From: an uncultured Bacteroidota bacterium
Lineage (GTDB): Bacteria; Bacteroidota; Bacteroidia; Chitinophagales; Chitinophagaceae
Assembly: GCA_963759335.1 (NCBI GenBank)
Contig: CAVWYU010000014.1
Coordinates: forward strand, 163,551 to 227,550
Length of the DNA stretch: 64,000 nt
Direction: 5' to 3'
The translations under genes and the position numbers were made by a program. Shown here piece by piece: positions 6,455 through 62,463 of the stretch (positions are counted from its first letter, which is position 1; each line of letters opens with the position of its first letter). Below the pieces are notes generated by a model that saw only the letters and a program-made list of their open reading frames with translations, made no database searches and was not told the origin of the DNA.

Positions 6455-6492
6455 GTGTGGAAGTTTGGAAGACTGGAAGTATGGAAGTGGAA
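6455..6492 (+). repeat. Octamer array (GWNTGGAA)x4 + GTGGAA
   Basis: GTGTGGAA GTTTGGAA GACTGGAA GTATGGAA GTGGAA. Confidence 0.9.
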
Positions 6493-6590
6493 TGTCATTA
6501 TCCCACTCATTTATTTGATACTACCTTCTTAAATAGATAACCAATTCTTACATAAATTAAAAACAGAGAAGGATTGCCCGTTCAATAGTT

Positions 6591-6621
6591 TTACGCTTTG
6601 GGCTTTACGCTTTGAGCCTTA
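6591..6621 (-). repeat. Heptamer array (YAAAGCG family) forming the DUF2480 C-terminus and stop codon
   Basis: Top strand TTACGCT TTGGGCT TTACGCT TTGAGCC TTA; encodes KAQSVKPKA*. Confidence 0.85.
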
Positions 6622-7115
6622 AACACGGGAACGGTGCTGCACGGTTCGCCATACATGATGGATTTGGCTACCGGTCTGAGTAATTTCGTTATTTCGAGAT
6701 ACGCAAAATCACCCACCGGTTTATCGCCACAACCTTTTATCACAATGCGCTGGTCTTTATAATCCCCGGGATTGATCGCCCGTATCCGGTCCGTCAGAAT
6801 CTGTCTGAGAACAGCCGTCTCATCTCCCATAATGACGTCCTTTGCATAGGGCTGAAGATAACTGGTGACCAGCATATATGCCCAGACGGGAATCACGGCA
6901 TCAGCCGAACAATAAATTCCTACGATTTTATCCTGGTAATCTGACCAGTCTGTTGTTAAAAGCGCAGCCCGAAAATCCTTTTCTTTTAATATCAGTTCCA
7001 TAAAAAGAAAAGGTTTCAGATCAAATATCTGGATAATCTCTTTGGGGAAAAAAGATTCCAGATCCAGCGTTACCAATGCACTCTGACTTACTTTATTTAT
7101 TATCTCTTCCTGCAT
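6591..7115 (-). CDS. DUF2480 family protein
   Basis: IINKV..S.L.TLDLE, KEKDFR and MYGEPCSTVP motifs; start at MQEE (7115). Confidence 0.85.
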   Translation of the reverse strand: MQEEIINKVSQSALVTLDLESFFPKEIIQIFDLKPFLFMELILKEKDFRAALLTTDWSDYQDKIVGIYCSADAVIPVWAYMLVTSYLQPYAKDVIMGDETAVLRQILTDRIRAINPGDYKDQRIVIKGCGDKPVGDFAYLEITKLLRPVAKSIMYGEPCSTVPVFKAQSVKPKA

Positions 7116-7121
7116 CACATG

Positions 7122-7129: not shown

Positions 7130-7133
7130 CTCA

Positions 7134-7273
7134 TAAAGCGCAAAACGTAAAGCGCAATGCGTAAAGCTCTTCAATTGGGAAAATGATTGAAAGAGCCAAT
7201 AAGATCGCTTAATTAAAAGGCCCACCGCATTTCCGTAAAGCCTTCTGCTTTACGCTTTAAGCCTTAAGCTTTA
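7134..7273. repeat. Inverted pair of YAAAGCG heptamer arrays (7134-7168 and 7246-7273)
   Basis: TAAAGCG CAAAACG TAAAGCG CAATGCG TAAAGCT ... TGCTTT ACGCTTT AAGCCTT AAGCTTT A; the right arm contains the PPIase stop. Confidence 0.85.
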
Positions 7274-9415
7274 AAGGAATTTCCCCCGGTCGTCCTCGAT
7301 TTTGGCTTTCTTCTTTAATGCATCAGTTCCTGACCGTTGGATAAGATTTTCCTGGGACTGCAACATGGTTTGTCTGGCCTGTTCCGGATCCACATTATAA
7401 TTGGCTTTGGCACTTACGTTTATCACTTTCACAACAAATACTCCTTCATTACCGCCGACCGGTGCAGAAACCGCTTTGCCGATCAGGCTTTTATCAAAAG
7501 AATATCCCACCACTTTCGGCTCAGGTCCGAGGTTTGGTATATAAGGGGAAGAAAACTGAAGGCTGTCCACGTGACTGATCGTTTGTGAGAAAGAATTTGC
7601 CACGGATTCCAAGGTTGCGGAAGTTCCGATCTTTCCGGAAATGATATCTGCCTTTCTCTTATTTCTTAAAATCGGCTCTATCATCGGTCTCACCTTCGTC
7701 AGACTGATTGTTCCTTTGTGATTGATTTCATTTACAAGGGCTACTACATATTTATCTCCGACTGAAAAAGATTCAGATACTTCGCCTTGTTTAGCGGCAT
7801 ATGCCCAACGCACCAGGGCACGACTGGATCCCATTCCCTGAATATTAAAATCCGTAGGCTGAATTTCCGGTGCTGTAATGGCGTGCAGATTTTGTTTTTT
7901 TACAGCTGCATCAAAAGAAGTTTTATCCCGATTTTCGCCGGCGAACTGACTCGCAAGACCGGAAGCATTCTGATCTGTTTCCTGGCTCGGTTCAATACGA
8001 CGGGAAAAGTATGCAATTTTGAACGCCGGTTCAAAATTCTTCTGATCCATGATTTCAATTAAATGGTATCCAAACTGCGTCTTTACGATCTTTATTTCTC
8101 CTTTTTTACCATTGAAAGTAAAATCTCCAAACTCCTTGACCATCTGGCCCTGGCCAAAATATCCCAGGTCTCCGCCTTTTATCCGGCTTCCTTCGTCCTC
8201 AGATAAATGAAAAGCAAGACTGTCAAATTTTTGTCCATTATCCAGCAGGTTCTTTATGCTGTCAATTTTCTTTTTGGCTGTGCTGTCATCCATCTTTGGC
8301 TGATTCGTTTTCGGATCGTTGAGTGCTACAAGTATATGTCGTGCACGTACTGAATCAGGCAGTGTTTTAATATCCATGATTCTTGCCAGCACAAAATTAT
8401 TTCCATCGAGATATGGGCCAACCACTGCGCCTGTCTGAAGAGCCATCAGAGAATCTTTTCTGGACCCGGTCAATTTAGACTTTGGCGTATATGTTTCTGA
8501 AAAATTAGTTTCTGTTCCGTTTTTGGTAAGGAATGATTCGACATCTGTCGTTGTAGCAAACTCCGGCCTGAGGGTTTGAACCTGTTGGAATATCGTGGCA
8601 CTGTCGCCGGCAGTTGGTGCGGCGCTGAAACTGATATAACTGATTGTACGGGATTCTTCCTGTGCGAATTGATTCTTATGATCATCCAGATATGCCTGAA
8701 TTTCCGCGTCTGAAATTTTTATTGTGCTGTCAGAAATAGTCTGATAAGGAATCTTTACAAAATCAACCGACGCAATCTGACTGTTATCGGCATTTGTTTT
8801 CTCTATCATCCATTTGGGGATGTAAGAACTTTGGGCGAGCAGGGATATATATTTTTCCCTCTGTCTCAATTTTACAAATTGAGGGAGTGCCTGTTCGAAA
8901 AAATTCTGGGCCATGGCATAATTCTGATCTGACCGCCGGTTGGCTTTATATATTGTTCTCAGCTGATTGATCCGGGAGGCCGCCTGCTGAGCGTCAAACA
9001 TCCCGGTATTCGGATCTGTAAATGCCCGCTTGATTTCCTGAACAGCGTTAGGACCTACCAGCATATCATTCAATTCCTTATCACTCACGTCAATGCCCAG
9101 ATTCTGATATTCAGTAAGTAATACTGCGTTTTCTTCGAACTGCTTCCATACTTCTTCGCGAATATTTTGGGAAAGCATATCATTCACAGGATATCCCTGG
9201 CTTTTATACTGATCTTCGCGTTCAGATACCTGTTTTTGAAAATCAGCATATTCAAGTTTTTCTCCATTCACCTGGCCAATCGTTCCAGAGGTTGAAGCAG
9301 CCGCACGGCCACCTATTGAACGGGCGTCCATGAGCAAAAATCCGATCAGACTCACAGCGATTAGTCCAAACACGAGCCAGGCAGCTTTATCTCTTATTTT
9401 CTGAATGATAGACAT
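7271..9415 (-). CDS. Membrane-anchored peptidylprolyl isomerase (PpiD-like; SurA_N + rotamase)
   Basis: N-terminal TM helix (MSIIQKIRDK), SVRARHIL, GGDLGYF and KTQFGYHLI motifs. Confidence 0.9.
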   Translation of the reverse strand: MSIIQKIRDKAAWLVFGLIAVSLIGFLLMDARSIGGRAAASTSGTIGQVNGEKLEYADFQKQVSEREDQYKSQGYPVNDMLSQNIREEVWKQFEENAVLLTEYQNLGIDVSDKELNDMLVGPNAVQEIKRAFTDPNTGMFDAQQAASRINQLRTIYKANRRSDQNYAMAQNFFEQALPQFVKLRQREKYISLLAQSSYIPKWMIEKTNADNSQIASVDFVKIPYQTISDSTIKISDAEIQAYLDDHKNQFAQEESRTISYISFSAAPTAGDSATIFQQVQTLRPEFATTTDVESFLTKNGTETNFSETYTPKSKLTGSRKDSLMALQTGAVVGPYLDGNNFVLARIMDIKTLPDSVRARHILVALNDPKTNQPKMDDSTAKKKIDSIKNLLDNGQKFDSLAFHLSEDEGSRIKGGDLGYFGQGQMVKEFGDFTFNGKKGEIKIVKTQFGYHLIEIMDQKNFEPAFKIAYFSRRIEPSQETDQNASGLASQFAGENRDKTSFDAAVKKQNLHAITAPEIQPTDFNIQGMGSSRALVRWAYAAKQGEVSESFSVGDKYVVALVNEINHKGTISLTKVRPMIEPILRNKRKADIISGKIGTSATLESVANSFSQTISHVDSLQFSSPYIPNLGPEPKVVGYSFDKSLIGKAVSAPVGGNEGVFVVKVINVSAKANYNVDPEQARQTMLQSQENLIQRSGTDALKKKAKIEDDRGKFL

Positions 9416-10987: not shown

Positions 10988-10989
10988 TA

Positions 10990-11040
10990 AAGTATGTAAG
11001 CATTGCGCTTATGCTTAAGCTTTAAGCGTAAAACATACTT
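10990..11040. terminator. Hairpin between convergent nadA and mnmG with internal TAAGC-type heptamers
   Basis: Outer stem AAGTATGT/ACATACTT; inner TAAGCAT/ATGCTTA. Confidence 0.5.
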
Positions 11041-21344: not shown

Positions 21345-22469
21345 ATGGAGTTGGCAAAACTTTATGCAAGGGCATTACAATTTGATTTTCTTACCGTGGA
21401 AGAAGGCGTCATGCTTTTTAATCATGCACCGCTGGCCGAACTGATGTTTGTTGCGGACGAACTGCGACAAAAACAAGTTGAACATGGAAAAGTTACGTGG
21501 CAGATAGACCGCAATGTAAATACGACAAATGTTTGTATCGCAAACTGCAAATTTTGTAATTTTTATCGGATACCCGGGCATCCTGATGCCTATATCACGG
21601 ATATTGACACGTATGTAAGGAAAATTGAAGAAACTTTTAAATGGGGCGGCGATCAGTTGTTGTTACAGGGCGGTCATCATCCTAAACTGGGATTAAGTTT
21701 TTATACTGATTTGTTCCGCGAATTAAAGACGCGTTATCCCAACTTAAAACTACATACACTGGGCCCTCCCGAGATTGCCCATATCTGTAAGCTTGAAAAA
21801 AAATCTCATCGTGAAGTGATAACCGCCTTACGTGAAGCCGGTATGGATTCGCTGCCTGGTGCGGGAGCCGAAATTCTGGTTGACCGGGTCAGGCGCCTGG
21901 TAAGTAAAGGGAAATGTGGAGCGCAGGAATGGCTGGATATTATGAAAGAGGCTCACCGGCAACACATTACTACTTCGGCGACGATGATGTTTGGTCACGT
22001 GGAAACCATCGAAGAAAGATTTGAACACCTTGTAAAAATCAGGGAGGTACAGTCGATGAAACCAAAGGATGCCAAAGGATTTCTAGCTTTCATACCATGG
22101 ACCTTCCAGGATGCGGATACCTTGCTGGCCAGGATCCGTGGAGTTCATAACCTGACTACACCGGAAGAATATATCCGGATGATTGCAATGAGCCGGATAA
22201 TGCTTCCCAACGTAAAAAATATCCAGGCTTCCTGGCTAACCGTCGGGAAGGAAACTGCCCAGATATGTCTGCACGCCGGTGCCAATGATTTTGGTAGTAT
22301 TATGCTGGAAGAAAATGTGGTCAGTGCCGCAGGGGCACCCCATCGGTTTACCAGTAAGTCCATCCAGGAGGCCATTAAAGAGGCCGGCTTTAAACCGCAA
22401 TTGAGAAACCAGCAATATGATTTCCGCGAACTGCCCACATTTATGGAAGAGCAAGTGATTGATTATTAA
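21345..22469 (+). CDS. mqnC: Cyclic dehypoxanthinyl futalosine synthase (radical SAM)
   Basis: IDRNVNTTNVC, CIANCKFC, LLQGG, PGAGAEIL and GANDFGS.MLEENVV motifs; alternative start at 21333. Confidence 0.88.
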   Translation: MELAKLYARALQFDFLTVEEGVMLFNHAPLAELMFVADELRQKQVEHGKVTWQIDRNVNTTNVCIANCKFCNFYRIPGHPDAYITDIDTYVRKIEETFKWGGDQLLLQGGHHPKLGLSFYTDLFRELKTRYPNLKLHTLGPPEIAHICKLEKKSHREVITALREAGMDSLPGAGAEILVDRVRRLVSKGKCGAQEWLDIMKEAHRQHITTSATMMFGHVETIEERFEHLVKIREVQSMKPKDAKGFLAFIPWTFQDADTLLARIRGVHNLTTPEEYIRMIAMSRIMLPNVKNIQASWLTVGKETAQICLHAGANDFGSIMLEENVVSAAGAPHRFTSKSIQEAIKEAGFKPQLRNQQYDFRELPTFMEEQVIDY

Positions 22470-22613
22470 GGCTTAATGCGTAAAGCGCCAAGCGGAAAGC
22501 ATTTTCTCATACCAGCCTTGAAATTGCTTTTCGACCTTGTTTAAAATCATATAAAAGCAGAGGAAGGATCTTTTGAATAAGCCTTGCGCTTTACGCTTTA
22601 CGTCCTAAGCTTA
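22470..22613. repeat. Inverted pair of YAAAGCG-family heptamer arrays
   Basis: GGCTTAA TGCGTAA AGCGCCA AGCGGAA AGC (22470-22500) ... AGCCTTG CGCTTTA CGCTTTA CGTCCTA AGCTTA (22580-22613). Confidence 0.8.
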
Positions 22614-25600: not shown

Positions 25601-26306
25601 TGACGCACTATTGAAAATTGATTCGGCATCTTCTTCCGGACAACCATTTGATTTAATTATAACCGATCATCATATGCCGGGTATGGATGGCATCAGTCTG
25701 GTTAAAGAAATCAAATCGTCCATGCCGGGTGTAAGTCAGCCATTTATTCTGATGCTTTCTTCTCTGGAAAAAAATCTATATCAATATGAAGCTGATAAAT
25801 CCGGCATTAATAAATTTATTTCAAAGCCTGTAAAATTACACGAACTCAATAGCACCCTGTTATCCCTGTTCGAGAAAAACATGCAAAATGATTCCCTGCA
25901 TCCTTCATTTGAATCCATTGAAAAAATCACACAGGCAGCCAGCATCATGGTCGTGGACGATGATCCGATTAATATGTTGCTGATTTCCGAAGTACTGAAG
26001 AGAATGGGGTTTGACGTTATCCAGATGCAGAATGGGAAGGAAGTAATTGAAGCGTTGCCGCATTATGATCCGGTGCTGATATTTATGGACGTGAATATGC
26101 CTGAGATGGATGGTTATACAACTACGCGCATCATACGAAAAATGCAGACTGCACAGTCAAAAATTCCAATCATTGCGCTCACAGCAGATGCAATGAAGGG
26201 CGATAAAGAACGATGCCTGGATTCAGGAATGAATAACTATGTTTCCAAGCCATTTAAAATGGAAGAAATAGAAGCGGTATTGCGGGAGTATGTTTTACTG
26301 GTTTGA
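22698..26306 (+). CDS. Hybrid sensor kinase: PilJ/NarX-like sensor, 2 PAS, GAF, HisKA, HATPase, 2 REC
   Basis: [26 protein letters not shown] and two receiver domains ([18 protein letters not shown]). Confidence 0.92.
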
Positions 26307-26409
26307 CGGTTGATGGTTGACGGTTGACGTTGGTAAAATAAAGTACCAATCAGGTTAGTTTATGTTTTTCACTTCCAGACTTCCAGACTTCCGGTCTTCC
26401 ACACTTGAC
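26304..26409. repeat. Composite element: TGACGGT heptamer x4, spacer, inverted octamer x4
   Basis: TGACGGT TGATGGT TGACGGT TGACGTT (the first TGA is the kinase stop). Minus strand reads GTGTGGAA GACCGGAA GTCTGGAA GTCTGGAA. Confidence 0.85.
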
Positions 26410-27108: not shown

Positions 27109-27143
27109 AGGCGTTAAGCGTTACGCGTTAAGCGTTACGCTTA
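27109..27143. repeat. Heptamer array / 14-mer duplication abutting the SNF2 stop
   Basis: GCGTTAAGCGTTAC x2 (27111-27138) followed by GC and the stop codon. Confidence 0.85.
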
Positions 27144-30100
27144 ACTGAAGAGGTATTCAACGTCCTCACGGGAAAGGCTCTTCACAAATCCATCATCATC
27201 AGCAATCAGATCCTTTGCCAAAATGCGTTTCCGGTCCTGCAATTGAAGAATCTTGTCTTCAATGCTGTCTTTACAAATCATCCGGTAAGCGAAAATATTC
27301 TTGGTTTGCCCGATACGGTGTGTCCGGTCGATAGCCTGTTGTTCAACAGCCGGGTTCCACCATGGATCTACGATGTACACATAGTCCGCTGCCGTCAGGT
27401 TAAGACCCACACCCCCGGCTTTTAGTGAGATCAGGAAAACACGACAGCTGTCATTGTCCTGGAATTCGCGTATAGCTTTTTCACGGTCTGTGGCGGTGGT
27501 ACTTCCGTCAAAATAGGCAAAAGGAATTTCGAGTTCAATCAGCTTTTCTTTGATCAGGGCCAGCATGCCCAGGAATTGTGAGAATATAAGGGCTTTATGG
27601 TTTCCGATATTTTCCGAGATTTCCCTGGCCAGCTCATCCAGTTTGATGGAATGGTTCGGGTATTTATCCGTTTCGTTCAGTATAGCAGGGGAATCACATA
27701 TCTGGCGGAGTTTCATCAGACCCTGTAAAATGGTCAGTTGTGATTTCTGTATACCCTGGGATTCAATGGTGCCCAGAATTTTATCCCGATAGTCATTCCG
27801 GTAAGCATCGTACACTTTGCGTTGCTCTTCTTCCATTTCACAAAACAGAATCGTTTCTGTTTTTTCCGGGAGATCTTTGGCAACCTGTTCCTTTGTTCTG
27901 CGAAGAATGAAAGGAAACAACAGTTTTCTAAGATGGTCCTTCCGGTCGGGCTCGCCAAATTTATCAATCGGTATGGCAAACTCCTGCCGGAAAAATTCGA
28001 TGCTCCCCAACATACCCGGATTGAGAAAGTTCATTTGCGCAAAGATGTCAAATGTATTATTCTGAAGAGGAGTACCGCTCATGCACAAACGATGTTTTGC
28101 GCGCAGCAGACAAGCCGCTTTTGTTACTTTACTGGCAGGATTCTTAATTGCCTGCGATTCATCCAGCACTACATAATCCAGGGGCATATCCATCAATAGT
28201 TTGATATCACTTCGCAGCGTGCCATAAGTAGTGATGATGACCTGAAAATTATTCAGCGCTTCTTTATTTCTCAACCGTTCGCCGCCATGATGAATCCGGT
28301 AGGTAAGTCCCGGAGCAAATTTTTTAATTTCATTCTCCCAGTTGAATATCAGTGTGGTCGGACAAACGACCAGTGCACGCAGGTGCCCGTAATGCTCTTT
28401 ATAGTGATGGAGGAAAGATAGTGCCTGTATTGTTTTTCCCAATCCCATATCATCTGCCAGAATACCTCCCCAGTTTACTTCGTGCAGATAATTGAGCCAG
28501 TGAAAGCCGTGGATCTGGTAGGGTCGAAGTGTGTGCAGCAGATGCGCCGGCGGATCGATTTCCTTTATTTTTTTAAATTCCTTTAGCTGCTCATATTTTT
28601 TCTCCAGGTGGATAATCAGCTCTTCTTCATTGCGGTTCTCGTATAATTCGTCAATCACACTCAGGTGATAACGGGATAAACGGAGTTCATTACTTTTTCC
28701 TTCCCCTACGCGGAAGAGAAGGGCGTATCTTTTTACCCATTCGTCCGGCAAAACACCCAGTGTACCATCGGTCAGCGGAACAAACTGTTGTTTATTTGCC
28801 AGCGCTTTTTTTACATCGGCAATTGATACTTTCTGGTCTCCAAATATGATATCCACCCGGGCATCAAACCAGTCAGTGCTGCTGCTGATATGAATTTTAG
28901 TCTGTGGACGGGAAGTATTAAAACGGAAATTTTTAAGTGCCTCGAACCCCTGCACGGTTACTTTCATTTCCTGCATGGCATCCATAAACAGAAAAAACCA
29001 GTTATTTTTCAAAACATCGCTCCCGCGCAAAGCCAGCCCGGATGAACCCTGGGGCTGAATGAACTGCGAATGCAGGGATTGAAGTTGTGTTATGAAAGCA
29101 GTTTCTTTCTCCTTATTGCGCTGAATAAGCAGCACTTTATCTCCATCAGGCACCACGAGCTGATCTTTTCCGATGGAAGTTGTTTCGAATCCCTTGTATG
29201 AAAAAACAGGCTGGAACAATAAGTAGTCACCTTTTTCCTGCAGCAGAACCTTTCTTTCAGGATCCCCGCTTTTGACTTCTCTGATCAGATCGTTTTCAAA
29301 TTCAACATGATATTCCTTCTGAAGTGGAATAACAAAGTTTCGCAATTGTCCCGGCCAGTCAGATTTGGAGATGGTCATACGGCCATCCGTAAATTTTGCA
29401 ATGACTGCAATATCTTCCGGTTTATCCCAGAGGTAGAGACAATTGTTTATGAATAAAATGACCTGGCTGTTACATTTATTTTGCGTGAGATCAATGGACT
29501 GTCCCGTGATCCGGGTATATGCCTTGATCTCAATATTGTTTTTATTGATGGATACTTTGAAAGAAGGACTGACCGGATCCGGTGACAGATTCACCGTCTG
29601 CAGGTTAGAGGTCTTAAATGGCTTATGACCATTCAGGAAAAAAATAAAGGGATTCTCGGACAGTTCTGTAAAGAGCTTTCTGTAGCGCGGATGAAGATAT
29701 TCTATGATCAACGCCTTCGTGTCGTCTGGCAATTCTTCTCCTTCCGTATGAATAATATTCTCCCACATGCCACTGAATGGCGAATTGCGGTTGAGGTACT
29801 TATTTACTTCCTGTTCCTGCGTTTTCCGGAGGGAAAAAACCAGCTGACGGTCTGCTTCATTTAATTTTTCGGTATTTACAAACTTTGCCAGCTCGAGTTT
29901 TTCAACCTTTCCCACATAAGCGGTCTGTTGTTCGTTGCTTTCGCCACTGATGGCATCGAGCAGGAAACCAGGATACGATTCATGATTGAAATTAAAAACC
30001 ACACCGAGCCGTTGTACTGAACTGGCTTTTTGTTCGGGTTCCAGTACTTCTTCGGCCACTTCACTTTCAATTTCCGGTTTCGGTCTTGATAAGGCGGCCG

Positions 30101-32919: not shown

Positions 32920-33357
32920 ATGAAGTCTTTGAAGCTGGACATGGACAATATGGAGGGAGATTTTTTTGATTGCTCCCGCCTGCTGGGTATTGTTGCACCA
33001 TTGAAAGGATATCGTTTCTGCTGGCAGTTGAATCGCCAGATGCGGCTCGATTTCCGCATCACCAACCAGATAGAAATTCCCATGATCCGGAAAAAACGTC
33101 AATATTTTTTTACGGTATATGAATGTCCGGAGCCACACAAGACCCTGGTACATTATCTCTATAATAATCAGTTTGACGGGGAATTCTTATTGCCTCAGTT
33201 CAGACACCTTGATTTTTTCTGGCTGTTGAAAGGGGATGCTGTTTCTGATGAACTGATGATAGAAATGATGGATTCCATCAAGTCCATAACGGGTGTTCAA
33301 ATGGTAACCGAGCTCACACACATGAAAATTAAACACAGGGAGAACCTCATTTTCTAA
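32920..33357 (+). CDS. IPExxxVDY family protein
   Basis: Y..CWQLN and LLPQFRHLDF (family-motif variant); ends ENLIF. Confidence 0.75.
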   Translation: MKSLKLDMDNMEGDFFDCSRLLGIVAPLKGYRFCWQLNRQMRLDFRITNQIEIPMIRKKRQYFFTVYECPEPHKTLVHYLYNNQFDGEFLLPQFRHLDFFWLLKGDAVSDELMIEMMDSIKSITGVQMVTELTHMKIKHRENLIF

Positions 33358-33439
33358 TTGTCAATGGTTAATTGTCAATTGTCAATGGGGATTCAGCATT
33401 TAATTTAATTAACAATTGACAATTATCCATTGACAATTA
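33355..33439. repeat. Inverted AATTGTC heptamer arrays (32-bp stem, 30/32 complementary)
   Basis: 33355-33386 versus 33408-33439; fills the gap between two convergent stop codons. Confidence 0.9.
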
Positions 33440-36825: not shown

Positions 36826-37101
36826 GGCCTGAGGCAGGAGGCAGGATGCTTGATGCGGGTAGCAATGGGAAAGACACCAAAATCAAGCATTCCGCATCGG
36901 GCCTTCGGTCTACAGCCTCCCGCGTCCTGCCCCCTATGTCCGGGTCTTGCATCCCGCGCCTCCTGCCTCCTGCCTAACGCCGTCCTGCCTCGCGCCTCCT
37001 GCCTCACGCCTCCTGCCTCACGCCTCCTGCCTCCCGCCTCCCGCCTCCTGCCTCCTGCCTCCCGCCTCCTGCCTCCCGCCTCCTGCCTCCTGCCTCCCGC
37101 C
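36826..37101. repeat. Large TCCTGCC/TCCCGCC heptamer array with a short inverted arm
   Basis: Left arm GGCCTGA GGCAGGA GGCAGGA TGCTTGA (36826-36853). Degenerate units from 36883; 17 uninterrupted units 36983-37101. Confidence 0.95.
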
Positions 37102-37349
37102 TCAAGTCTCCGCTCAACCTTCGATCAACCTTCGATCAAAGGCACATTTTACAGATGGATGAACGTAGGTTGGTCGATCCATGAACGAAGTTTCATGGTC
37201 CAATGAAAAGTTCCCACCCATCACTGAAAATAACCGTCGTACATTTTATTTCTGAGTCTTGCCGATGATTATTAATTTATATATTGCTAATAATCAATGA
37301 TATACGATTTACGCTCTCGGATACTATAAAAAGTATTGACCTTTCTATG

Positions 37350-47703: not shown

Positions 47704-47729
47704 ATTCAATTTAAGCAAGTATTGAACAA

Positions 47730-47925
47730 GTATGGAAGTGTGGAAGACTGGAAGTGTGGAAGTGCAGAATTTTAACAAACTTATTTAACTGCTAACTCTC
47801 TAAACGACTAACTAACAACTAACAACTAACAACTAACAACTGTCAACCGCCAACCCCGCATTCCGCGGGGCAGGCCGCCAACCGCCAACCGTCAACCGTC
47901 AACCGTCAACCGTCAACCATCAACG
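47730..47925. repeat. Composite element: octamer x4, CAACTAA array, palindrome CCCCGC-ATTCC-GCGGGG, CAACCGY array
   Basis: Read directly from the sequence; ends one base from the response-regulator stop (47926). Confidence 0.9.
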
Positions 47926-50058: not shown

Positions 50059-50065
50059 AAGTTTT

Positions 50066-50073
50066 CAAAAATA
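50066..50073 (-). promoter_or_regulatory. -7 element TATTTTTG (surA)
   Basis: Exact TAnnTTTG, 7 nt before the ATG. Confidence 0.5.
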
Positions 50074-50080
50074 CATTCTC

Positions 50081-50154
50081 TAATTGTCAATTGTCAATTG
50101 TTCATTGTCAATTAGGACAATAATTAACAATTGACAATTAACAATTAACAATTA
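50081..50154. repeat. Inverted AATTGTY heptamer arrays; the right arm supplies the infB stop
   Basis: 50081-50114 versus 50121-50154, 29/34 complementary. Confidence 0.9.
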
Positions 50155-52965
50155 TAGCGTTCGTTTCACTTCTTCTTCCTCATATGCCTCAACAATATCT
50201 CCTACATGATAGTCGGTATAATTTTTTATAACGATACCGCATTCCATGCCTGATGGTACTTCTTTCACATCATCCTTAAATCTTTTCAGGGATGCCAGTT
50301 CTGCCGTTGCACCTTCTCCGATCGGATAGACCACAATACCGTCGCGAACCAGCCGGATCTTTGAATTCCGGTAAATTTTTCCATCCAGTACATAACAACC
50401 GGCAACCGTCGCTTTGTCGAATTTGAATACGTTTCTGATTTCGACATTGGCAACGACTTTTTCCTGGATCTTCGGCTCCAGCATCCCTTCCATCGCGCTC
50501 TTCACTTCTTCGATCGCATTATAAATAATGGAGTATGTTTTGATTTGCACCCCTTCATTTTCAGCCAGTCTCGCCGCCTGAACAGAAGGCCGGACGTTAA
50601 ATCCAACCACAACCGCATCGGATGCTGTTGCAAGAAGAACATCACTTTCGGTAATCGCACCCACTGCTTTATGAACCACTTTTACGGCTATTTCTTCGGT
50701 GGAGAGTTTCTGAAGTGAATCGCTCAGTGCTTCTACCGATCCATCCACATCACCTTTCAGAATCAGATTCAGTTCCTTAAAGTTACCCAGTGCCAGTCGA
50801 CGACCGATTTCATCCAGCGTGATATGTTTCTTGGTCCGAATACCCTGTTCGCGTGCCAGCTGACCCCGTCTGTTGGCGGTTTCCTTAGCTTCTGCTTCAT
50901 CTGCAAAAACCTTGAATTTTTCACCAGCCTGCGGAGCACCATTCAGGCCAAGCAATAGTACCGGCGAGGATGGCGGCGCATCTTCAATTTTCTTATTCCT
51001 TTCATTAAACATGGCCTTGATACGTCCGAAATACTGACCGGATACCACGAGGTCTCCGCTTTTCAGTGTTCCGCCCTGAACCAGCACCGTAGCCACATAA
51101 CCCCTTCCTTTATCCAGGGAGGCTTCTATCACCGTACCGGATGCTTCCCGTTTCGGATTGGATTTCAGATCAAGAATTTCTGCTTCCAGAAGGATTTTTT
51201 CCAGTAAAAGATCCACATTCAGACCCTTTTTGGCAGAAATCTCCTGGCTCTGGTACTTACCACCCCAGTCTTCCACCAGGATGTTCATACCCGCGAGTTG
51301 TTCCTTTATTTTTTCAGGATTTGCTCCTTCCTTGTCAATTTTATTGATGGCAAAAACCATCGGCAGATTCGCCGCCTGGGCATGCGATATCGCTTCTTTG
51401 GTTTGTGGCATGATGGCATCATCGGCTGCGATCACGATGATCGCAATATCCGCAGCCTTGGCACCACGGGCACGCATGGCCGTAAAGGCTTCGTGACCCG
51501 GCGTATCCAGGAAGGTGATTTTTTTACCGTTTGCCGTCGTAACCTGGTAAGCACCAATATGCTGTGTGATACCACCGGCTTCACCCGCAACCACATTGGC
51601 AACGCGGATAAAATCCAGTAATGAGGTCTTACCATGATCCACATGACCCATGATGGTAACCACCGGAGAACGCGGCAGCAGATCCTCGGGCGTATCAACA
51701 ACTTCATCTTCTTCCAGCTCCAGTGCATCGTCAATTCCGATGAATTCAACCGTATATCCAAATTCACCGGCTACCAGTTCAATCACATCAGCTTCCAGGC
51801 GCTGGTTGATGGACACCATCATGCCCAGACTCATACATTTACTGATGATATCGGCATAACTCACATCGATCAGGTTGGCCAGCTCACTCACACTGATAAA
51901 CTCAGTAACCTGAAGTTTGGTGCTCTCCTGCTGTTCGCTTCCGCTGGCTTCCGCATTTTCTTCCCTGCGTGCCCGGCGGTATTTTGCCTTACTGCCTCTT
52001 CCGCGCCCACCTGTTCCGGCCAGCTTGGCCTGGGTTTCACGGATCTTTTCCTGAATTTCTTTCTTATCAATTTCTTTCTGGTCGCGGGGAGTAGCCGCAC
52101 TGCGGTTCGTAGCACTGGCTGGTGAACGGAGATCACGACGCAGAATCGGTTTCGCACCACTGCTCGGACGTGTTGGTTCCCGTTGCACAGGTGTTCCGGT
52201 GCCTGACGGTTTACCATTATTATTTCCGCCTTCCCTCTTTTCGATGGGAATACGTTTTCTTTTCCTTTTCTCATCCAGCTGTTTGGGCTTTTCCGTTTCA
52301 ACGGGCAGGTCTATTTTGCCCAGAATACGCGGCCCTTCAATCTTGTCAACCAGGATGTTCTCAATGTTTGCTTCTTCTTCCTTCTCAACCTCGGGAACGG
52401 CGACTTCTGCAATGATTTCTTCAGGTTTCTCAACAGGTACAACGGGTTTTTCTTCCGGAACAACCACCTTTTCTTCAGGTTCCTTTTTCTTTACTGTTTT
52501 CTTTGGCCTGGTGGAAGAATCGATCTGGGAGAGATCTATTTTATCGATGATTTTCGGACCTTCTAATTCAGGCGCTTCGATTTTGATCGTTTCCGGTTCC
52601 TTTTTAGGTTCTTCAACCTTTGCAATGACGACCGGTTTTACTTCTTCAACGACCACAGGAACCGGTTCTTCTTTTACCGGTTTCTTTTCCGGACCTTTCC
52701 GGAAGAGAACAGTTTCATCCTCTTTCTTGCGTTTGGCCTCTACACTTCCTTTCGGAAGATCAATCTGGTTACTTTTGATCTTAGCTACTTTGTCTCCCTG
52801 GAATTCCTGTTGGAGGGACCGGTACATTTCGTCGGTAAGCTTGGCGGTTGGTTTCAGATCGTCCTTACTAAACCCCTTGCCTACCAGGAAGTCCACCAGC
52901 GTTTCCTTGCCGATGTTGAATTCCTTGGCTGCTGCCATTAAACGTGGTGATGTCGTTTCTGCCAT
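50152..52965 (-). CDS. infB: Translation initiation factor IF-2
   Basis: [20 protein letters not shown] and [12 protein letters not shown] motifs; start at MAETT (52965). Confidence 0.97.
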
Positions 52966-54340: not shown

Positions 54341-54832
54341 TTAAAAAACAATCTGGATCTTTGTTGATTTTATATTGTTGAATAAATAACTATGTGAACT
54401 GATCTCTTTCTTCTTCGATTGCAATTTCCCGTTGGAAACCTTGCCAGTTGTCTCTTCCAGCACAATCCCTTCTTCATTTACTGCCGTCAGCTGTCCTTCT
54501 TTCTGCGATCCGTCCTGGAAATGAACCTCCACCTGCCGGCCAATATTCTTTTTATACTGGCGTAATAATTTGAGTGGCTCATCCAATCCGGCAGAAGATA
54601 CTTCCAGTGAAAAATCACCTTCAGGAAACATAGCTGCCTCTTCCAGTTTCTTATAGAGCTTTCGGTTTACCTGTACACATTTCTCAATTGTGATGCCGGA
54701 ATCTCCGTCCAGAAAAACCTTTATATTATTTGTTGGCTTGATCCGAAGATCTACCAGGAAATAAACCGGCTCTTCTTCGAGGATTTCCCCGATCATTCTC
54801 CGAATGCTTTCAATTTGGATTTCCTTGTCCAT
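54341..54832 (-). CDS. rimP: Ribosome maturation factor RimP
   Basis: LEVSSAGLDEPL motif; first gene of rimP-nusA-infB. Confidence 0.93.
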   Translation of the reverse strand: MDKEIQIESIRRMIGEILEEEPVYFLVDLRIKPTNNIKVFLDGDSGITIEKCVQVNRKLYKKLEEAAMFPEGDFSLEVSSAGLDEPLKLLRQYKKNIGRQVEVHFQDGSQKEGQLTAVNEEGIVLEETTGKVSNGKLQSKKKEISSHSYLFNNIKSTKIQIVF

Positions 54833-54842
54833 ACGAAAAGAA

Positions 54843-54866
54843 GAAGGGAACGATTGCGTTCCCTTC
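54843..54866 (-). promoter_or_regulatory. rimP leader hairpin
   Basis: GAAGGGAACG-ATTG-CGTTCCCTTC, a perfect 10-bp stem 10 nt before the ATG. Confidence 0.6.
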
Positions 54867-54889
54867 CTGTTGTTTCACTATACCGGCTG

Positions 54890-54897
54890 CAAATTTA
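54890..54897 (-). promoter_or_regulatory. -7 element TAAATTTG (rimP operon)
   Basis: Exact TAnnTTTG. Confidence 0.6.
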
Positions 54898-54989
54898 ACG
54901 GTTTTATTCGATTCCTCCCAAATATGGTATTTAATTTGCCCTTAGGTTTTAACAGTGTTATTGTCGTTACTGCATTAATTTTGTATGAC

Positions 54990-55274
54990 ATGAATGTTTT
55001 TGTACTCGCCATATTAATTTACCTGCTTTACCGGTTTATCGCCGGCTTCCTGATTCCGGTGATCAGAACAACCAGTCATGTGCGCCAGCAGTTCACTAAT
55101 ATGAATAAGCAGGCTCAGGAGAACGGTCCAACGCCCAACGCTCAACGCTCAACGCATAACGCCCAACGTTCAACGCCCAACGCCCAAGGCCCAACGCCTA
55201 ACGAACATCGTAATGGCGCACATTCCGGAACTCCAAAAGTGGGAGAATACATTGATTTTGAGGAAGTCAAGTAA
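54990..55274 (+). CDS. Small membrane protein (DUF4834-like) with internal heptamer array
   Basis: N-terminal TM helix, C-terminal GEYIDFEEVK; TAATTTTG promoter element at 54976-54983. Confidence 0.75.
   Translation: MNVFVLAILIYLLYRFIAGFLIPVIRTTSHVRQQFTNMNKQAQENGPTPNAQRSTHNAQRSTPNAQGPTPNEHRNGAHSGTPKVGEYIDFEEVK
55129..55205 (+). repeat. CAACGCY heptamer x11 inside the CDS
   Basis: Encodes PTPNAQRSTHNAQRSTPNAQGPTPNE. Confidence 0.92.
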
Positions 55275-55430
55275 ATTCTGGCCTACGGCCAGAATTTACA
55301 GTGTGGAAGTATGGAAGACTGGAAGTCTGGAAGTGGAACTTTGCCTCGCCACCGAAGCTTCAGCGAAGGTGGGCCAACCGTCAACCGTCAACCGCCAACC
55401 GTCAACCGCCAACCGTCAACCGTCAACGAA
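55271..55430. repeat. 13-bp hairpin, octamer x4, GAAGCTTC-centred palindrome, CAACCGY x8
   Basis: GTAAATTCTGGCC-TAC-GGCCAGAATTTAC (55271-55299), octamers 55301-55338, heptamers 55375-55430. Confidence 0.9.
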
Positions 55431-56067: not shown

Positions 56068-56077
56068 TTTTTATGTC

Positions 56078-56229
56078 TAAAGCCCAAAGCTCAAAGCCTA
56101 AAACCAGTAAGGTTTTAGAGTTTAAATTTCAAGTCCGATTTAGAAATTTTTATATAAAATTATTTATTACTCATTAACACTCATTTTCATTCTCAGTTTT
56201 GGGCTTTAGGCTTTCGGCTTTAGGCTTGA
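56078..56229. repeat. Inverted YAAAGCC heptamer arrays around an AT-rich spacer
   Basis: TAAAGCC CAAAGCT CAAAGCC TAAAACC (56078-56105) ... GGGCTTT AGGCTTT CGGCTTT AGGCTTG (to 56228). Confidence 0.88.
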
Positions 56230-59217: not shown

Positions 59218-59240
59218 GTTTGTTAGTTTTTATGAAAAGA

Positions 59241-61025
59241 TCATGGTGCTGATTCCGGTGCTTTTACTTCAACCGGTTTTGTTTTTTCTGAAATGCCGTT
59301 TTCGTTGAAAGATTCTATCGAGAAATAATAAGTTCGTCCTTTGTCCATCGGTTTAAAATAATACTGGTTGTCGTTATAGACCATCACATTATTATATAAT
59401 TTATCAGGCGCAATGCCCCAATAAATATTATACCCCGTTGCCTCATTTACAGTGATCCATTTAATGAGCGCGTTGCGTGGATCATTCTCACTGCGTAAAA
59501 CGATGAACTGTTTTACGGTATCCGGTTTTTCTCCTGCTCCTTTTCCAAAAACACGCAGTCCGCTGATGGCAAATTTACCGGTTGGCATGTGTATGTTTTC
59601 CATTTTTATAAAACGTGTGCGGACTGGTTTGGATAGTTCGAGGTATTCATGCGGAATATCCGTGTGGTTCCGGCTTTTGTCGGCCAGGATATGCCAGGTT
59701 TTGCCATCTATAGATTCCCAAAGAATATATTGATGATACAAACCGGGGATTTTTCCCAGAAAAGATGAATCGACGTCCTGGTCAGCATAGTTGATTTGAA
59801 CCGCATGAACGGTGCTCACCGCACCCAGGTCTGTTTGTATCCATTCATGTGCTGCTCCGGAAGCCGCACTCCAATAGGTCCGGATGTCTTCATCCACAGC
59901 ATTGTTGGCGGTATATGCGCCGAATGTGGAGGAAACCTGCACGGGTTTATCATAGTTCAACAACATCCACCCCGTAAAATTTCCATGCAGATGATCTTTT
60001 TTTTCTGCCGGAAGGAATTGCGGGTAATCACCAAAAGCAGTATTGGAATACAGGATATCGTCGCCATCAAAACCCGCCGGCCATATGCCCAGTCTTCTTT
60101 CAAAATTGTTTTTCATATTCACAACCATCGTGGATATATGCCACCAGTTTCCAAAAGGATCCTGGTAGGTGGATCCATGACCCGCACCCCGTGCAAAACC
60201 GCCGGGTTTATACGAAAACGGATTACTCGCCTGATAGGTAAAAGGACCCATGGGATGGTCAGCCATGTATACGCCGTCGCCATAACCCCTGATCTCCGTA
60301 CCCGGACCTCCATATTGTAAATAATATTTTCCGTGATGTTTAGTCATCCAGGCGCCTTCAATAAAAGGGTTCAGAAAATTATTGTCGTTGTATTCGCCGA
60401 ATCGCTCCCAGCCGTGTATATCATCATGCAGTTTGATCAGCTCTTTGTGTTCGCCGATCGGCTGCAAAGTTTTCCGGTCAATTTCCCATCCGTAAATGGG
60501 ATACAGATTACTGGAACCATGATAGAGAAAAATCTTACCGTCATCATCCAGAAATAATGCCGGATCCCAGGCGCCCGCCTGAAAAGAATCCACGGCTTCC
60601 TTCCATTGATCCTGTTTTGGATGGGTACTCATCCAGAGCGGGAAATTTTTTGTGTAGGTTGAACCGATCACCAGCAATGTGTCTCCCAGCACCAGGGTGG
60701 CCGGTGCGCAAAGATCGTCGTATACATGATGCCAGGGTTTTAAAAAGGAGCGATGTATAAAATGCCAGTTCAGCATATCGCTGCTCCACCAGTAACCCCA
60801 CTGGTTGGTAGAGAATAAAAAATAATCTCCTTTATACATCGTGATGACCGGATCTGCCGTAGCGCGGTGACGACCGGCTTCAGAAAAATTCGGAATGGGC
60901 GTATATCCGTAATCAATGTTGATCGGGTTGCAATATGTTTTTTGCTGGGCTGTTGCATGAAAAACAGCAAGGCTGACGATCAGAAGACAAACAACTCTTC
61001 TCAGCAGTGGGAAGTTTTTTTTCAT
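59241..61025 (-). CDS. GH43 glycoside hydrolase with F5/8-type C (CBM32-like) and Fn3-like domains
   Basis: ADP, WDPALF and IEGAWM five-bladed propeller motifs; AVDEDIRTYWSA. Confidence 0.82.
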   Translation of the reverse strand: MKKNFPLLRRVVCLLIVSLAVFHATAQQKTYCNPINIDYGYTPIPNFSEAGRHRATADPVITMYKGDYFLFSTNQWGYWWSSDMLNWHFIHRSFLKPWHHVYDDLCAPATLVLGDTLLVIGSTYTKNFPLWMSTHPKQDQWKEAVDSFQAGAWDPALFLDDDGKIFLYHGSSNLYPIYGWEIDRKTLQPIGEHKELIKLHDDIHGWERFGEYNDNNFLNPFIEGAWMTKHHGKYYLQYGGPGTEIRGYGDGVYMADHPMGPFTYQASNPFSYKPGGFARGAGHGSTYQDPFGNWWHISTMVVNMKNNFERRLGIWPAGFDGDDILYSNTAFGDYPQFLPAEKKDHLHGNFTGWMLLNYDKPVQVSSTFGAYTANNAVDEDIRTYWSAASGAAHEWIQTDLGAVSTVHAVQINYADQDVDSSFLGKIPGLYHQYILWESIDGKTWHILADKSRNHTDIPHEYLELSKPVRTRFIKMENIHMPTGKFAISGLRVFGKGAGEKPDTVKQFIVLRSENDPRNALIKWITVNEATGYNIYWGIAPDKLYNNVMVYNDNQYYFKPMDKGRTYYFSIESFNENGISEKTKPVEVKAPESAP

Positions 61026-61050
61026 GCAGCCAATCGAATGGGACGCTAAG

Positions 61051-62463
61051 TTATTTATTAATAGCTGGCTGGAAATCTAATTTTTGCAAACCCTTCTGTA
61101 CTTCATCACAACTCATGAATAATTTCCATAAAAGACCAGTACGATAATTTTCAATCATAGCGACAATCGGACCTTCGTCAATGGCCAGGTAGCTTTTGGC
61201 ATACCAGTTTTTGGTTTCATTAAATGCATCCGTAAATCCGTAAGGCCCCCAGATTTTATTTCCGAGATCATAATAAAAATGTTTCAGCGCTTTCATGGAT
61301 TGTTCAGGTGTATAGGGAAAGGAAGAAAGCGCCGCGGTCGGACTGATCGTCCCGAAATCATTGTCGGGCGATTGCGCATTGTATCCGTCATATGTGTCAC
61401 TGGCAGAAAGCCCCCAGCAGTTTTCACCATATCCTTTGAAATGACCCGGATTGGCCACACAGTATTTATAATTGATCAGCGTCTGATTCTGATTCTGCTC
61501 CCAGTAATCAGCGTATCGGTCTTTTAATCCGTGTGGGTTCAGTCCCAAAAAGCTGTAATGCGAAAAGAATAACGGGCCACCATACGGAGGACCGAGGGGA
61601 AGTTTGATCCCATAATATTCTTTTCCATTGATGAAGTGTTCACCTTTTGGCCAGCATTTTTGATACAGATCGGCCGTAATGGGATAGGTAGGTGAGGATG
61701 CGCCGAGCACATAGGTGATCAGACATTCATCCCATCCGGTGATTTCGATGTTCATGCTCCATCCGTTATTCGGACTCCAATGCCAGAAATAGGAATTTCC
61801 CTGATCACGTTGTTGCCAGCTCCACTCTACCTGTGTCCACAGACTGTTGATACGATTACGTAATTCTTTTTCAAGCGAATTATTTTGATTGAAGTATTGG
61901 CGGGCGCATAATAAGCCTTCAAATAGATAGGCCGTTTCAACAATATCGGCAGCGTCATCTTTTCGGGAAAATGGAACGGTAATCCCGGTGGCACCATTCA
62001 TCCAGTGCGGAAAAATACCGTGATAACTGTTTGCCTTGCTCAGGAATTTCACGGACTTCAATAAATGTTTTACGGCAGTGTCCCTGCGTATCCAGTGACG
62101 CTCGGTGGCAACGATAATGGCCATCACGCCGAATCCGCTTCCACCGATGGTTACCACTTCGTTGCCATAGGCGGGTGTTGTGTTGCTGCGCTCACGGGCA
62201 AGACCGCTGACGGGATGAGAGAAGTCCCAGAAATATTTAAATGTTTGTTTTTGTACGAGATCGAGCAGGGCGCTGTCGGAAATTAGTTGGCGGCTTGTCC
62301 CGCGAAATGCGGGGTTGGCAGTTGGCAGTTGGCGGTCAGACGTTGAAGGGTTAGACTCCGCTTCTTCAACAGGTACGACAACCTGAGCGAATGATAAAGA
62401 GGAGAGAAGAATCAGAAGCCAGCAAAAAATTCCTTTTTTAAAGAAAGAATCAGGCATAACCAT
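61051..62463 (-). CDS. GH144-type (glucoamylase-family) endo-beta-1,2-glucanase
   Basis: SGLARER, GGSGFG, WDE.LI.Y, GGPLFFSHYSFLG and YLAIDEGP motifs. Confidence 0.82.
   Translation of the reverse strand: MVMPDSFFKKGIFCWLLILLSSLSFAQVVVPVEEAESNPSTSDRQLPTANPAFRGTSRQLISDSALLDLVQKQTFKYFWDFSHPVSGLARERSNTTPAYGNEVVTIGGSGFGVMAIIVATERHWIRRDTAVKHLLKSVKFLSKANSYHGIFPHWMNGATGITVPFSRKDDAADIVETAYLFEGLLCARQYFNQNNSLEKELRNRINSLWTQVEWSWQQRDQGNSYFWHWSPNNGWSMNIEITGWDECLITYVLGASSPTYPITADLYQKCWPKGEHFINGKEYYGIKLPLGPPYGGPLFFSHYSFLGLNPHGLKDRYADYWEQNQNQTLINYKYCVANPGHFKGYGENCWGLSASDTYDGYNAQSPDNDFGTISPTAALSSFPYTPEQSMKALKHFYYDLGNKIWGPYGFTDAFNETKNWYAKSYLAIDEGPIVAMIENYRTGLLWKLFMSCDEVQKGLQKLDFQPAINK

Follow-up and report, generated by a model that had tools for sequence, protein, structure and literature searches.

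The window analyzed here is a 64,000-nucleotide stretch of an uncultured Bacteroidota genome (assembly GCA_963759335.1, contig CAVWYU010000014.1, positions 163,551 to 227,550), in which short tandem arrays of 7- and 8-nt units lie at the 3' ends of genes. The neighboring genes encode, according to Pfam, MgtE, a PpiD-like protein, DUF2480, NadA, MnmG, MqnC, a hybrid histidine kinase, SNF2, Rho, PadR, a response regulator, IF-2, NusA, RimP, DUF4834, HAD, and GH3/BglX. AsnS was identified by protein comparison, and its nearest named relatives are from Puia sp. (Bacteroidota). These identities agree with those proposed in an initial annotation made from the sequence alone for ppiD, DUF2480, mqnC, the kinase, SNF2, rho, the response regulator, infB, HAD, and bglX (by Pfam), and for asnS (by its relatives). 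All of the ~40 window proteins are housekeeping; Pfam identified no transposase (Y1/RAYT type included), reverse transcriptase, or nuclease among them, as expected from the earlier statement that the window encodes no cognate enzyme. Rfam recognized no known RNA family within the window. The period-7/8 arrays are confirmed as real features of a Chitinophagaceae (Puia-like) host.

Arrays are far more abundant than chance predicts. Window tandem repeats were listed with Tandem Repeats Finder (TRF), and the chance level was taken from 30 dinucleotide-preserving shuffles. TRF returned 49 rows, including 19 of period 7 and 7 of period 8, when shuffles yield 1.27 and 1.53, respectively (excesses of ~15-fold and ~5-fold); five further rows of period 14 are period-7/8 arrays already counted. 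Periods 9–11 are near chance (3–4 rows vs 1.3–2.1 in shuffles) and period 12 is modestly elevated (5 rows vs 0.67). A stricter self-match scan found 14 period-7 arrays where 0.05 are expected. Arrays are almost all noncoding and belong to ~5 main unit families at ~15 sites in 64 kb. TRF and the reading of every intergenic spacer recovered all of the unit families first reported: YAAAGCS (6590, 7134/7247, 10988, 22467/22575, 27111, and 56077/56196), AATTGTY (33355/33408 and 50078/50121), TTGACGG = CAACCGT (26303, 47875, and 55375), GGCAGGA/GCCTCCT (36831/36958), and the NTGGAAGN 8-mer, or TGGAAG, family (6453, 26371, 47728, and 55300). Inspection of every spacer also identified the minor families AACTAAC, CCAACGC, and GTTGGCA. 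The vocabulary is small, with AAAGCS at seven sites and TGGAAG at four, and each family has a fixed 5–6-nt core and one or two variable positions (TGGAAG-NN, AAAGC-NN, CAACCG-Y). Low-complexity repeats can in principle be misassembled or missequenced, but orthologous loci have the same families in assemblies that were made independently, with different technologies and from different samples (ERZ26871208 nanopore contigs of metagenome-assembled genomes [MAGs] and many Joint Genome Institute [JGI] Illumina assemblies), and we give almost no credence to an artifact.

Elements have two architectures. Those of class A have the form (unit)n – spacer – (reverse-complement unit)n and are at 7134/7239, 22471/22575, 33355/33408, 50078/50121, 56077/56196, 10988, and 27111. 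Those of class B consist of a G/purine-rich array followed by a noncomplementary C-rich array (26303/26371, 55300/55375, and 6453/6590), to which we add the 146-nt GCCTCCT arm after asnS. The initial annotation described the second arm as usually inverted, which holds for most elements but not for the three or four composites. The features of the window are as follows.

6453..6488, plus strand: NTGGAAGN 8-mer, 4.5 copies, 17 nt after the mgtE stop (6436) and preceded by the hairpin GTGAGCC-GTG-GGCTCAC
6590..6625, minus strand: YAAAGCG, ~4 units, running into the DUF2480 gene so as to take in its stop (6591-6593) and final codons
7134..7274, minus strand: inverted YAAAGCG/CGCTTTR after the stop of the ppiD-like gene (TAA in the first unit), arms 7134-7168 and 7239-7273, 70-nt spacer; RNA fold -50.8 kcal/mol, z -4.3
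10988..11038, no strand assigned: short AAGC/GCTT-type hairpin occupying the convergent nadA/mnmG spacer
22466..22612, plus strand: inverted YAAAGCG/CGCTTTA after the mqnC stop (TAA in the first unit), 68-nt spacer
26303..26406, no strand assigned: between convergent genes, TTGACGG (3.9 copies) with the kinase stop, a small hairpin, then ACTTCCAG (4.5 copies) at the 3' end of a 206-aa gene; no structure in either sense (z +2.1 and +1.5)
27111..27144, minus strand: GCGTTAA/GCGTTAC (14-mer, 2.5 copies) taking in the SNF2 stop; self-complementary, 13-bp hairpin
33355..33439, no strand assigned: inverted AATTGTC with 32-nt arms, occupying the convergent spacer between a 145-aa gene and rho; first unit includes the TAA stop, in-register complementarity of arms 94%, fold -35.9 kcal/mol, z -8.0
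36831..37103, plus strand: after asnS, GGCAGGA arm of 2.3 copies (36831-36846) and GCCTCCT arm of 20.7 copies (36958-37103)
47728..47924, minus strand: after the response-regulator gene and in its sense, TTGACGG/TTGGCGG (7 copies), a GC hairpin, GTTAGTT (4.6 copies), then CTTCCACA (4.6 copies), this last part unstructured
50078..50157, minus strand: inverted AATTGTY immediately 3' of infB, with the TAA stop in its first unit; closes the operon and precedes the promoter of the following gene; fold -35.4 kcal/mol, z -8.6
55128..55203, plus strand: CCAACGC, 10.9 copies, inside the DUF4834 gene (54804-55274), linker region
55278..55427, no strand assigned: convergent DUF4834/HAD spacer with the small canonical bidirectional hairpin AAATTCTGGCC..GGCCAGAATTT, NTGGAAGN (4.4 copies), a central hairpin, and CAACCGT (7.6 copies); arrays unstructured, z +3.7 and +0.65
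56077..56227, minus strand: inverted AAAGCC/GGCTTT after the bglX stop, 28-nt arms, 86% complementary, 91-nt spacer
62314..62333, no strand assigned: GTTGGCA, 2.9 copies, inside the open reading frame (ORF) 61051-62463; minor

Class A RNA folds well beyond shuffles (z -3.3 to -8.6). Arms have 3.4–4.8 units, and spacers between inverted pairs are 6–91 nt in the window and share no sequence among copies of one family. Complementarity between arms is higher in register than after a shift of one unit: 94% versus 79–83% at 33355, 94% versus 85–89% in L011, 89% versus 76–81% in L003, and 92% versus 75–79% in L171 (the last three among the comparison loci designated L). Arms therefore mirror each other's variant units. 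Folding is also informative at 47800-47926, where two unlike arrays, (UUGACGG)n and (GUUAGUU)n, are joined by G.U pairs in one sense only, that of the response-regulator gene (-51.7 kcal/mol, z -6.1, vs -19.1 kcal/mol, z -0.9, in antisense). A GC-rich mini-hairpin (CCCCGCATTCCGCGGGG) at 47852-47876 is located mid CAACCGC array as if inserted, and is reminiscent of small dispersed repeats reported within cyanobacterial heptamer arrays.

In either sense, class B arrays are no more stably folded than shuffles, and some are less so (z 0 to +3.7). The far arm after asnS is 146 nt of unstructured sequence with 57% C and 14% G. The composition and lack of structure of this arm and of the CAACCGT and CTTCCA arrays would suit a Rho utilization (rut) site, for which at least 60–80 nt of C-rich, G-poor, unstructured RNA past the stop is expected. 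More tentatively, Rho might load on the C>G tract of class B elements where genes converge or operons end. A direct repeat of 11 nt (TCAACCTTCGA, 2.4 copies, 100% identical) directly follows the GCCTCCT array at 37114-37139. The ORF 36850-37206 (plus strand, 118 aa) runs through the array, has no Pfam hit, and is probably spurious.

Location of arrays correlates with stop codons. Window arrays begin 0–10 nt 3' of stop codons, and in at least seven cases, where at least five had been noted, the stop is part of a repeat unit: TAAAGCT at 7273, TAAGGCT at 22467, TAATTGTC at 33355, TAATTGTT at 50154, T-TGA-CGG at 26304, TTAAGCG at 27141, and a TAA within the array at 6591. Some far arms adjoin the start of the next gene (the 7134 arm is 9 nt from the DUF2480 start), and two arrays are within coding sequence (55128-55203, in the DUF4834 gene, and 62314-62333). 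For comparison, a NusA-based metagenome scan provided 80 syntenic loci of relatives with 83–100% NusA identity, and AsnS look-ups added three; statistics were computed on 953 kb. Intergenic DNA is only 13% of these sequences and has 70 of 117 period-7 and 32 of 52 period-8 arrays. Convergent spacers contain arrays most often (27%), followed by tandem (18%) and divergent (8%) spacers. The first array of a spacer lies a median of 8.5 nt from the stop, whereas the last one lies 44.5 nt from the following start, with starts being over-extended. These statistics indicate that docking at 3' ends is real but statistical rather than absolute. The provision of back-up stops in all three frames, as a reason for periods that are not multiples of three, was rejected as a general explanation; a stop triplet is in the sense arm of only about half of the families (TAAAGCG, TTGACGG, GTTATGA, and AAATGTGA).

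The order of arms is regular. Whichever DNA strand is read, the purine/G-rich arm precedes the pyrimidine/C-rich one. We replaced a rule of G>C skew with one of purine>pyrimidine because AAAGCC arms have more C than G. Among pairs in the 953 kb of relatives, the purine-rich arm is first in 21 pairs and second in two, both of the compositionally neutral AATTGTC. A scan of public genomes for TGGAAG 8-mer arrays found 63 purine-first cases, some being one pair counted once per strand, none in reverse, and one with both orders. An exact-pattern search for the AAAGC family identified four loci, all purine-first. Ordinary nonrepeat hairpins of at least 9 bp in the same spacers have a much weaker bias (purine-first in 51 vs 26; A>T in the 5' arm in 55 vs 19), which we attribute to the asymmetry of terminator A-tracts and T-tracts. 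Because arm order is a property of the element itself, either orientation of an element appears polarized toward its nearest gene, and because polarity is strand-symmetric, it is by itself silent on the direction of docking. The near arm is thus consistently of the same strand, as first described, without being oriented to the gene. In L123 (12568-12701), an inverted period-9 pair (AGAATATAC, 3.9 copies, and TACATTCTC, 5.9 copies) begins 13 nt after a stop with its purine-rich arm first, so the phenomenon is not strictly limited to 7 and 8 nt.

The TGGAAG core recurs across phyla, with matches in Poribacteria, Anaerolineae/Chloroflexi, Kiritimatiellae, Bacteroidota, Cyanobacteria, Verrucomicrobia, and others, in a scan whose pattern itself required TGGAAG and had no control motif. 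In Anaerolineae, Bacteroidota, and other MAGs, TGGAAG hairpins fill short same-strand spacers, 6–10 nt past the stop of the preceding gene; the gene context of the cross-phylum loci, as called by a crude ORF finder, is weakly informative. At 7440-7510 of L042, TGGAAG arrays are nested inside an outer ACGTGAA/TTCACGT pair, and noncomplementary arrays follow TGGAAG in Moorena L026 ((ACCTGTA)28, 1940-2314) and in the Chloroflexi MAG L013 ((AATTGYT)10, 3266-3432). These arrangements echo both classes of the window.

Alternatively, a trans-acting factor that recognizes 7–8 nt per module may bind the arrays; it could be a cold-shock/S1-type OB-fold protein on RNA, Rho on C-rich arms, or an IHF/HU-like protein on DNA, and vocabularies of units would coevolve with it. 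The conserved 5–6-nt cores with one or two variable positions, a vocabulary that is limited per genome and shared among close relatives, the TGGAAG core in Poribacteria, Chloroflexi, Kiritimatiellae, Cyanobacteria, and Bacteroidota, and the rut-like composition of unstructured C>G arrays of 50–146 nt are consistent with such a factor. Similar proposals have been made for Beggiatoaceae (PMC4679880), Geobacter (PMC2700814), and Nostoc (bioRxiv 10.1101/2022.06.06.494920). But the window has at least five unrelated cores and a single orthologous site has dozens, too many for one sequence-specific binder; no candidate factor emerged, simple arrays of sites leave the pairing of arms unexplained, and the cross-phylum recurrence came from a pattern that demanded TGGAAG. 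We regard this explanation as improbable.

Four TGGAAG arrays (6453, 26371 on the minus strand, 47728, and 55300) have a common phase, starting with AAGTR and ending with GGAAGTG, with ~4.5 copies and a middle AAGACYGG unit. TGGAAG and CAACCGT arrays are together three times in 64 kb, with unrelated spacers. A dedicated system, which would either extend 3' ends at breaks, reiteratively or on a template, and then join them, or trans-mobilize hairpin elements by a Y1/RAYT-type enzyme encoded elsewhere, could account for the shared phase, ends, and copy number at four loci and for the repeated co-occurrence. It would also explain the noncomplementary pairs and a G-rich strand that runs 5' to 3' toward the center even in composites, as in head-to-head telomere fusions. 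We nevertheless consider such a system very unlikely, given unrelated spacers, an absence of target-site duplications or of conserved ends beyond the repeat (as seen by eye), locus-specific units that a fixed template would not produce, evolution of arrays in concert and in place, and the lack of such an enzyme among the window proteins. Arrays also flank older central hairpins rather than a single junction.

Sites are conserved across relatives and sequences are not; arrays grow, homogenize, and are replaced in place. In ~40 relatives, the site after infB has inverted arrays of more than 10 different units, a canonical hairpin and T-run terminator, or nothing obvious. Inverted units include AATTGTY, AAAGCC, CAAGRNN, TTGACAG, GCTGGTN, GAGCTRY, and AAAGTCA, and noncomplementary pairs are GGATACT with CCTTGTR and TTGACGG with ACCCGAY. 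A canonical hairpin with a T-run is present in L157, L180/183, L193, L197, L129, L130, L143, and L169. Nearly all relatives keep a Bacteroidota-type promoter (TTTTGTTAAAT ... TAnnTTTG) downstream of the infB 3' element. This promoter serves a gene for a PpiC-type rotamase (e.g., L165 14231-14400; ~50059-50080 in the window), and in L129, L130, L143, and L169 the -33 region itself is part of the terminator hairpin. After asnS, four genomes have inverted arrays of four units (GGCAGGA, AAAGCC, AAGTATGG, and GTTATGA). Taken together, relatives at the infB and asnS sites have arrays of other units, ordinary hairpin and T-run terminators, or nothing. The comparison of filled and empty sites recommended in the initial annotation yielded both at the HAD/DUF4834 spacer: the window, L121, and L126 share an inherited composite, (TTGRCRG)n + (CTTCCANN)n, and the spacer is empty (23–25 nt) in L123 and L124. 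All units of these arrays carry lineage variants (TTGACGG/TTGGCGG vs TTGACAG/TTGGCAG), which indicates concerted evolution. Conservation extends to the small canonical bidirectional hairpin that flanks these arrays next to the stop of DUF4834.

Close relatives share vocabularies of units. In contrast, the more distant Chitinophagaceae L180 and L183 have no 7/8-mer arrays in their 21-kb loci and use canonical hairpin and T-run terminators. Richness in arrays is a trait of lineages. The dozens of lineage- and locus-specific units that occur at one site are beyond what a fixed template could make. The single generating mechanism suggested at first, templated synthesis or a trans-mobilized element, is therefore not supported; unrelated spacers, concerted evolution in place, and a window of housekeeping proteins likewise argue against it. 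No conserved core, ends, or target-site duplication of an element was seen, by eye only. A miniature inverted-repeat transposable element (MITE) or a mobile element like repetitive extragenic palindromic (REP) sequences was rejected for the same reasons, namely spacers that are unrelated among copies and orthologous arrays that evolve in place.

The same patterns could arise without function. Arrays may be a neutral by-product of a lineage-specific bias in slippage or template switching that expands units until it meets coding sequence, a promoter, or a ribosome-binding site, with docking at 3' ends reflecting unconstrained DNA. The unbalanced expansion after asnS (2.3 vs 20.7 copies), the spill of arrays into the coding tails of DUF2480 and BglX and into the DUF4834 linker, empty orthologous sites (L123, L124, and L002), lineages without arrays (L180 and L183), fast turnover of units, and the lack of a consistent RNA-strand signature agree with neutrality. 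It is harder to reconcile with a purine-first order that holds strictly in 12 or more unrelated unit families, arms that mirror variant units, a hairpin that depends on G.U and forms in the sense strand only, and the repeated replacement of canonical terminators at the exact position. Composites that fold worse than shuffles (z up to +3.7) suggest that structure is avoided. A purely neutral origin is thus unlikely, though it is the alternative that we take most seriously.

Selection for 3'-end RNA structure, also raised as an alternative in the initial annotation, is in better agreement with these observations: hairpins with z of -3.3 to -8.6, the sense-only G.U fold, and replacement of terminators after infB and asnS. 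At little better than even confidence, we favor the explanation that the arrays are simple repeats of known kinds that grow by slippage on 3'-end hairpins and behave like REP sequences, as partial terminators or stabilizers of RNA 3' ends. Slippage is suggested as the generator by concerted evolution, runaway expansion of one arm after asnS, mirrored variants, filled and empty sites, and spill into coding tails. Replication slippage of 7–8-nt units would occur in the least constrained DNA, from the stop codon to the next promoter or start, with arrays nucleating on, and extending, the arms of ordinary 3'-end hairpins. Arms could be kept as mirror copies by compensatory selection or by template switching within the hairpin. 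Such quasi-palindrome template switching is established in Escherichia coli. Arrays would be tolerated nowhere but between a stop and the promoter or start that follows, and hairpins there would substitute for ordinary 3' hairpins, so that the transcript gains a long, register-tolerant stem–loop directly after the stop codon. This stem–loop is predicted to act as a barrier to 3' exonucleases and as a partial terminator or attenuator that replaces the canonical hairpin and T-run. Polarity could follow if the pyrimidine-rich 3' arm forms a weak rY:dR hybrid while the hairpin closes, which would fit termination or pausing and agree with the weaker bias that ordinary hairpins show. The explanation would require neither a dedicated enzyme nor a mobile element.

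Array hairpins and intrinsic terminators share the same orthologous location and have a purine/A-rich 5' side and a pyrimidine/T-rich 3' side; AAAGCC...GGCTTT units resemble a reiterated terminator stem base with a short U-run. They differ in that array stems are 25–37 nt of repeats, usually without a T-tract, have spacers that are sometimes 70–130 nt, and are present inside an operon. Although stable, most array hairpins lack the U-tract of intrinsic terminators. Arrays occupy the terminator position after infB and asnS, yet in relatives they are also between rimP, nusA, and infB. Hairpin arrays are in the nusA-infB spacer of 7 of 47 relatives (e.g., L171, L187, and L168) and in the rimP-nusA spacer of 13 of 70, and these spacers leave little room for a promoter; a scan for the sigma-70 consensus was noisy. 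In a small sample, all four clear cases within operons are of class A, and class B elements are at convergent junctions or operon ends.

Several observations weigh against the explanation that we favor. Presence inside the rimP-nusA-infB operon indicates that arrays are not efficient terminators, their hairpins are mostly without a T-tract, and a consensus terminator scan, itself noisy, did not flag them. The role as terminator or stabilizer is deduced from position and folding, and folding in sense versus antisense over 11 elements is mixed, giving no general RNA-strand signature and being decisive only at 47800-47926. Slippage does not explain why polarity is stricter in arrays (21:2 and 63:0) than in ordinary hairpins (2:1) and does not by itself explain the preference for 7 and 8 nt. 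It also leaves unexplained the reuse of phase-conserved units at unlinked loci in one genome and the TGGAAG core in distant phyla, and simple local slippage does not account for the common phase of TGGAAG arrays or their pairing with CAACCGT. Lastly, noncomplementary composites follow the purine-first order without a hairpin. The purine-first rule (at least 12 unit families; TGGAAG 63:0 in at least six phyla) and the small, phase-conserved vocabulary could instead reflect a dedicated system, either a conserved factor that reads repeats near the 3' ends of mRNAs or reiterative DNA synthesis directed by 3' ends at breaks, rather than slippage and hairpin selection, a proposal that we find doubtful and advance only as an outside chance.

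Repeats of this kind have precedents. Short tandemly repeated repetitive (STRR) heptanucleotides of cyanobacteria were reportedly described by Mazel et al. in 1990. Heptanucleotide arrays have been known in cyanobacteria since that year and were noted in Beggiatoaceae, Geobacter, and others. The link to STRR made in the initial annotation is apt, as window arrays agree with the definition in all but host: they are tandem heptanucleotides of few families at many intergenic sites with a lineage-specific vocabulary, to which the window adds an 8-nt family. The host of STRR is a (heterocystous) cyanobacterium, whereas that of the window is a member of Chitinophagaceae with gene order and promoters of the Bacteroidota type. 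Window arrays are also mostly inverted pairs that abut stops with purine-first order, features that the parts of STRR-type descriptions available to us do not state. The cyanobacterial Moorena L026 has similar arrays, with TGGAAG 8-mers followed by a C-rich heptamer array.

Window arrays also fall within the category of long simple sequence repeats (LSSRs), with units of 1–11 nt and arrays longer than chance according to dinucleotide-shuffle controls. In LSSRs of 5–11 nt (Mrazek 2007, as summarized in PMC4679880), heptanucleotides are the commonest, polymerase slippage is proposed, and repeats are intergenic unless the unit is a multiple of three. LSSR is a statistical category that does not cover inverted pairing, docking at stops, polarity, or terminator replacement. 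In Beggiatoaceae, TAACTGA repeats are mainly just upstream of start codons (PMC4679880). The closest published architecture that we found is that of paired tandem 7–9-mer "global regulator binding sites" in Geobacter metallireducens (GTTGCTYN x4, TCTCCGTS[Y] x3, and MTYCTGA x5), with 24, 21, and 8 pairs of 3–5 tandem units on opposite strands at variable distance, one pair being between proB and proA (PMC2700814). These sites are absent from G. sulfurreducens and were interpreted, without a test, as sites for IHF/HU-type proteins (PMC2700814). Window arrays likewise have 3–5 tandem units, opposite-strand pairs, and several families. They differ in phylum and units, position at stops and polarity are not reported for Geobacter, and the comparison is by description and not by sequence.

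REP sequences of enterobacteria and pseudomonads are ~35-nt imperfect palindromes of conserved sequence that are mobilized by RAYT transposases; they stabilize upstream mRNA and attenuate read-through, with a proposed role in blocking 3' exonucleases or terminating in part. Like REP sequences and bacterial interspersed mosaic elements (BIMEs), window arrays are extragenic, presumably transcribed, and form predicted hairpins after stops within or at the ends of operons, and they most plausibly work like REP elements. They differ in having tandem 7/8-mer arms with units that vary by locus and no conserved palindrome. The conserved interior, defined termini, and target-site duplication of MITEs were not found in the arrays, with duplication judged by eye. 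In our limited search of the literature, we found no description of a purine-first rule, stop-codon docking, or terminator replacement, and we claim no priority.

Arrays extend into coding sequence in a few cases. The CCAACGC array of the DUF4834 gene (55128-55203) passes through all three reading frames, repeating every 21 nt, and the ortholog in L121 has the same family in the same place (9128-9184). The C-terminal tail of BglX, its last ~25 residues (…EPNAQSVKPKTGLKQKAKD*), is encoded by an older AAAGC relic (56233-56290, minus strand). Likewise, the last codons and stop of the DUF2480 gene (6591-6625, minus strand) are encoded by a relic of an AAAGC-type array, with a parallel at L121 8053-8116. 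Arrays thus remodel protein C-termini, where 7-nt indels would shift the frame. A strong hairpin of 10–12 bp (AAGAAGGGAACG...CGTTCCCTTCTT) with T-rich tails on both strands is located at 54841-54868, just upstream of rimP, and may be a leader attenuator of rimP-nusA-infB or a terminator of the divergent DUF4834 region.

The soil Bacteroidota genome represents a new host lineage for a known but functionally unexplained class of repeats rather than a new mobile system. Purine-first order, docking at stop codons, and replacement of terminators at orthologous sites appear to be new regularities of this class. Arrays can seed false gene calls, such as ORF 36850-37206, and are fast-evolving strain markers. 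Three clues from the window and ~1 Mb of relatives, namely terminator replacement, purine-first order across phyla, and the division into hairpin and unstructured classes, turn a descriptive curiosity into testable hypotheses.

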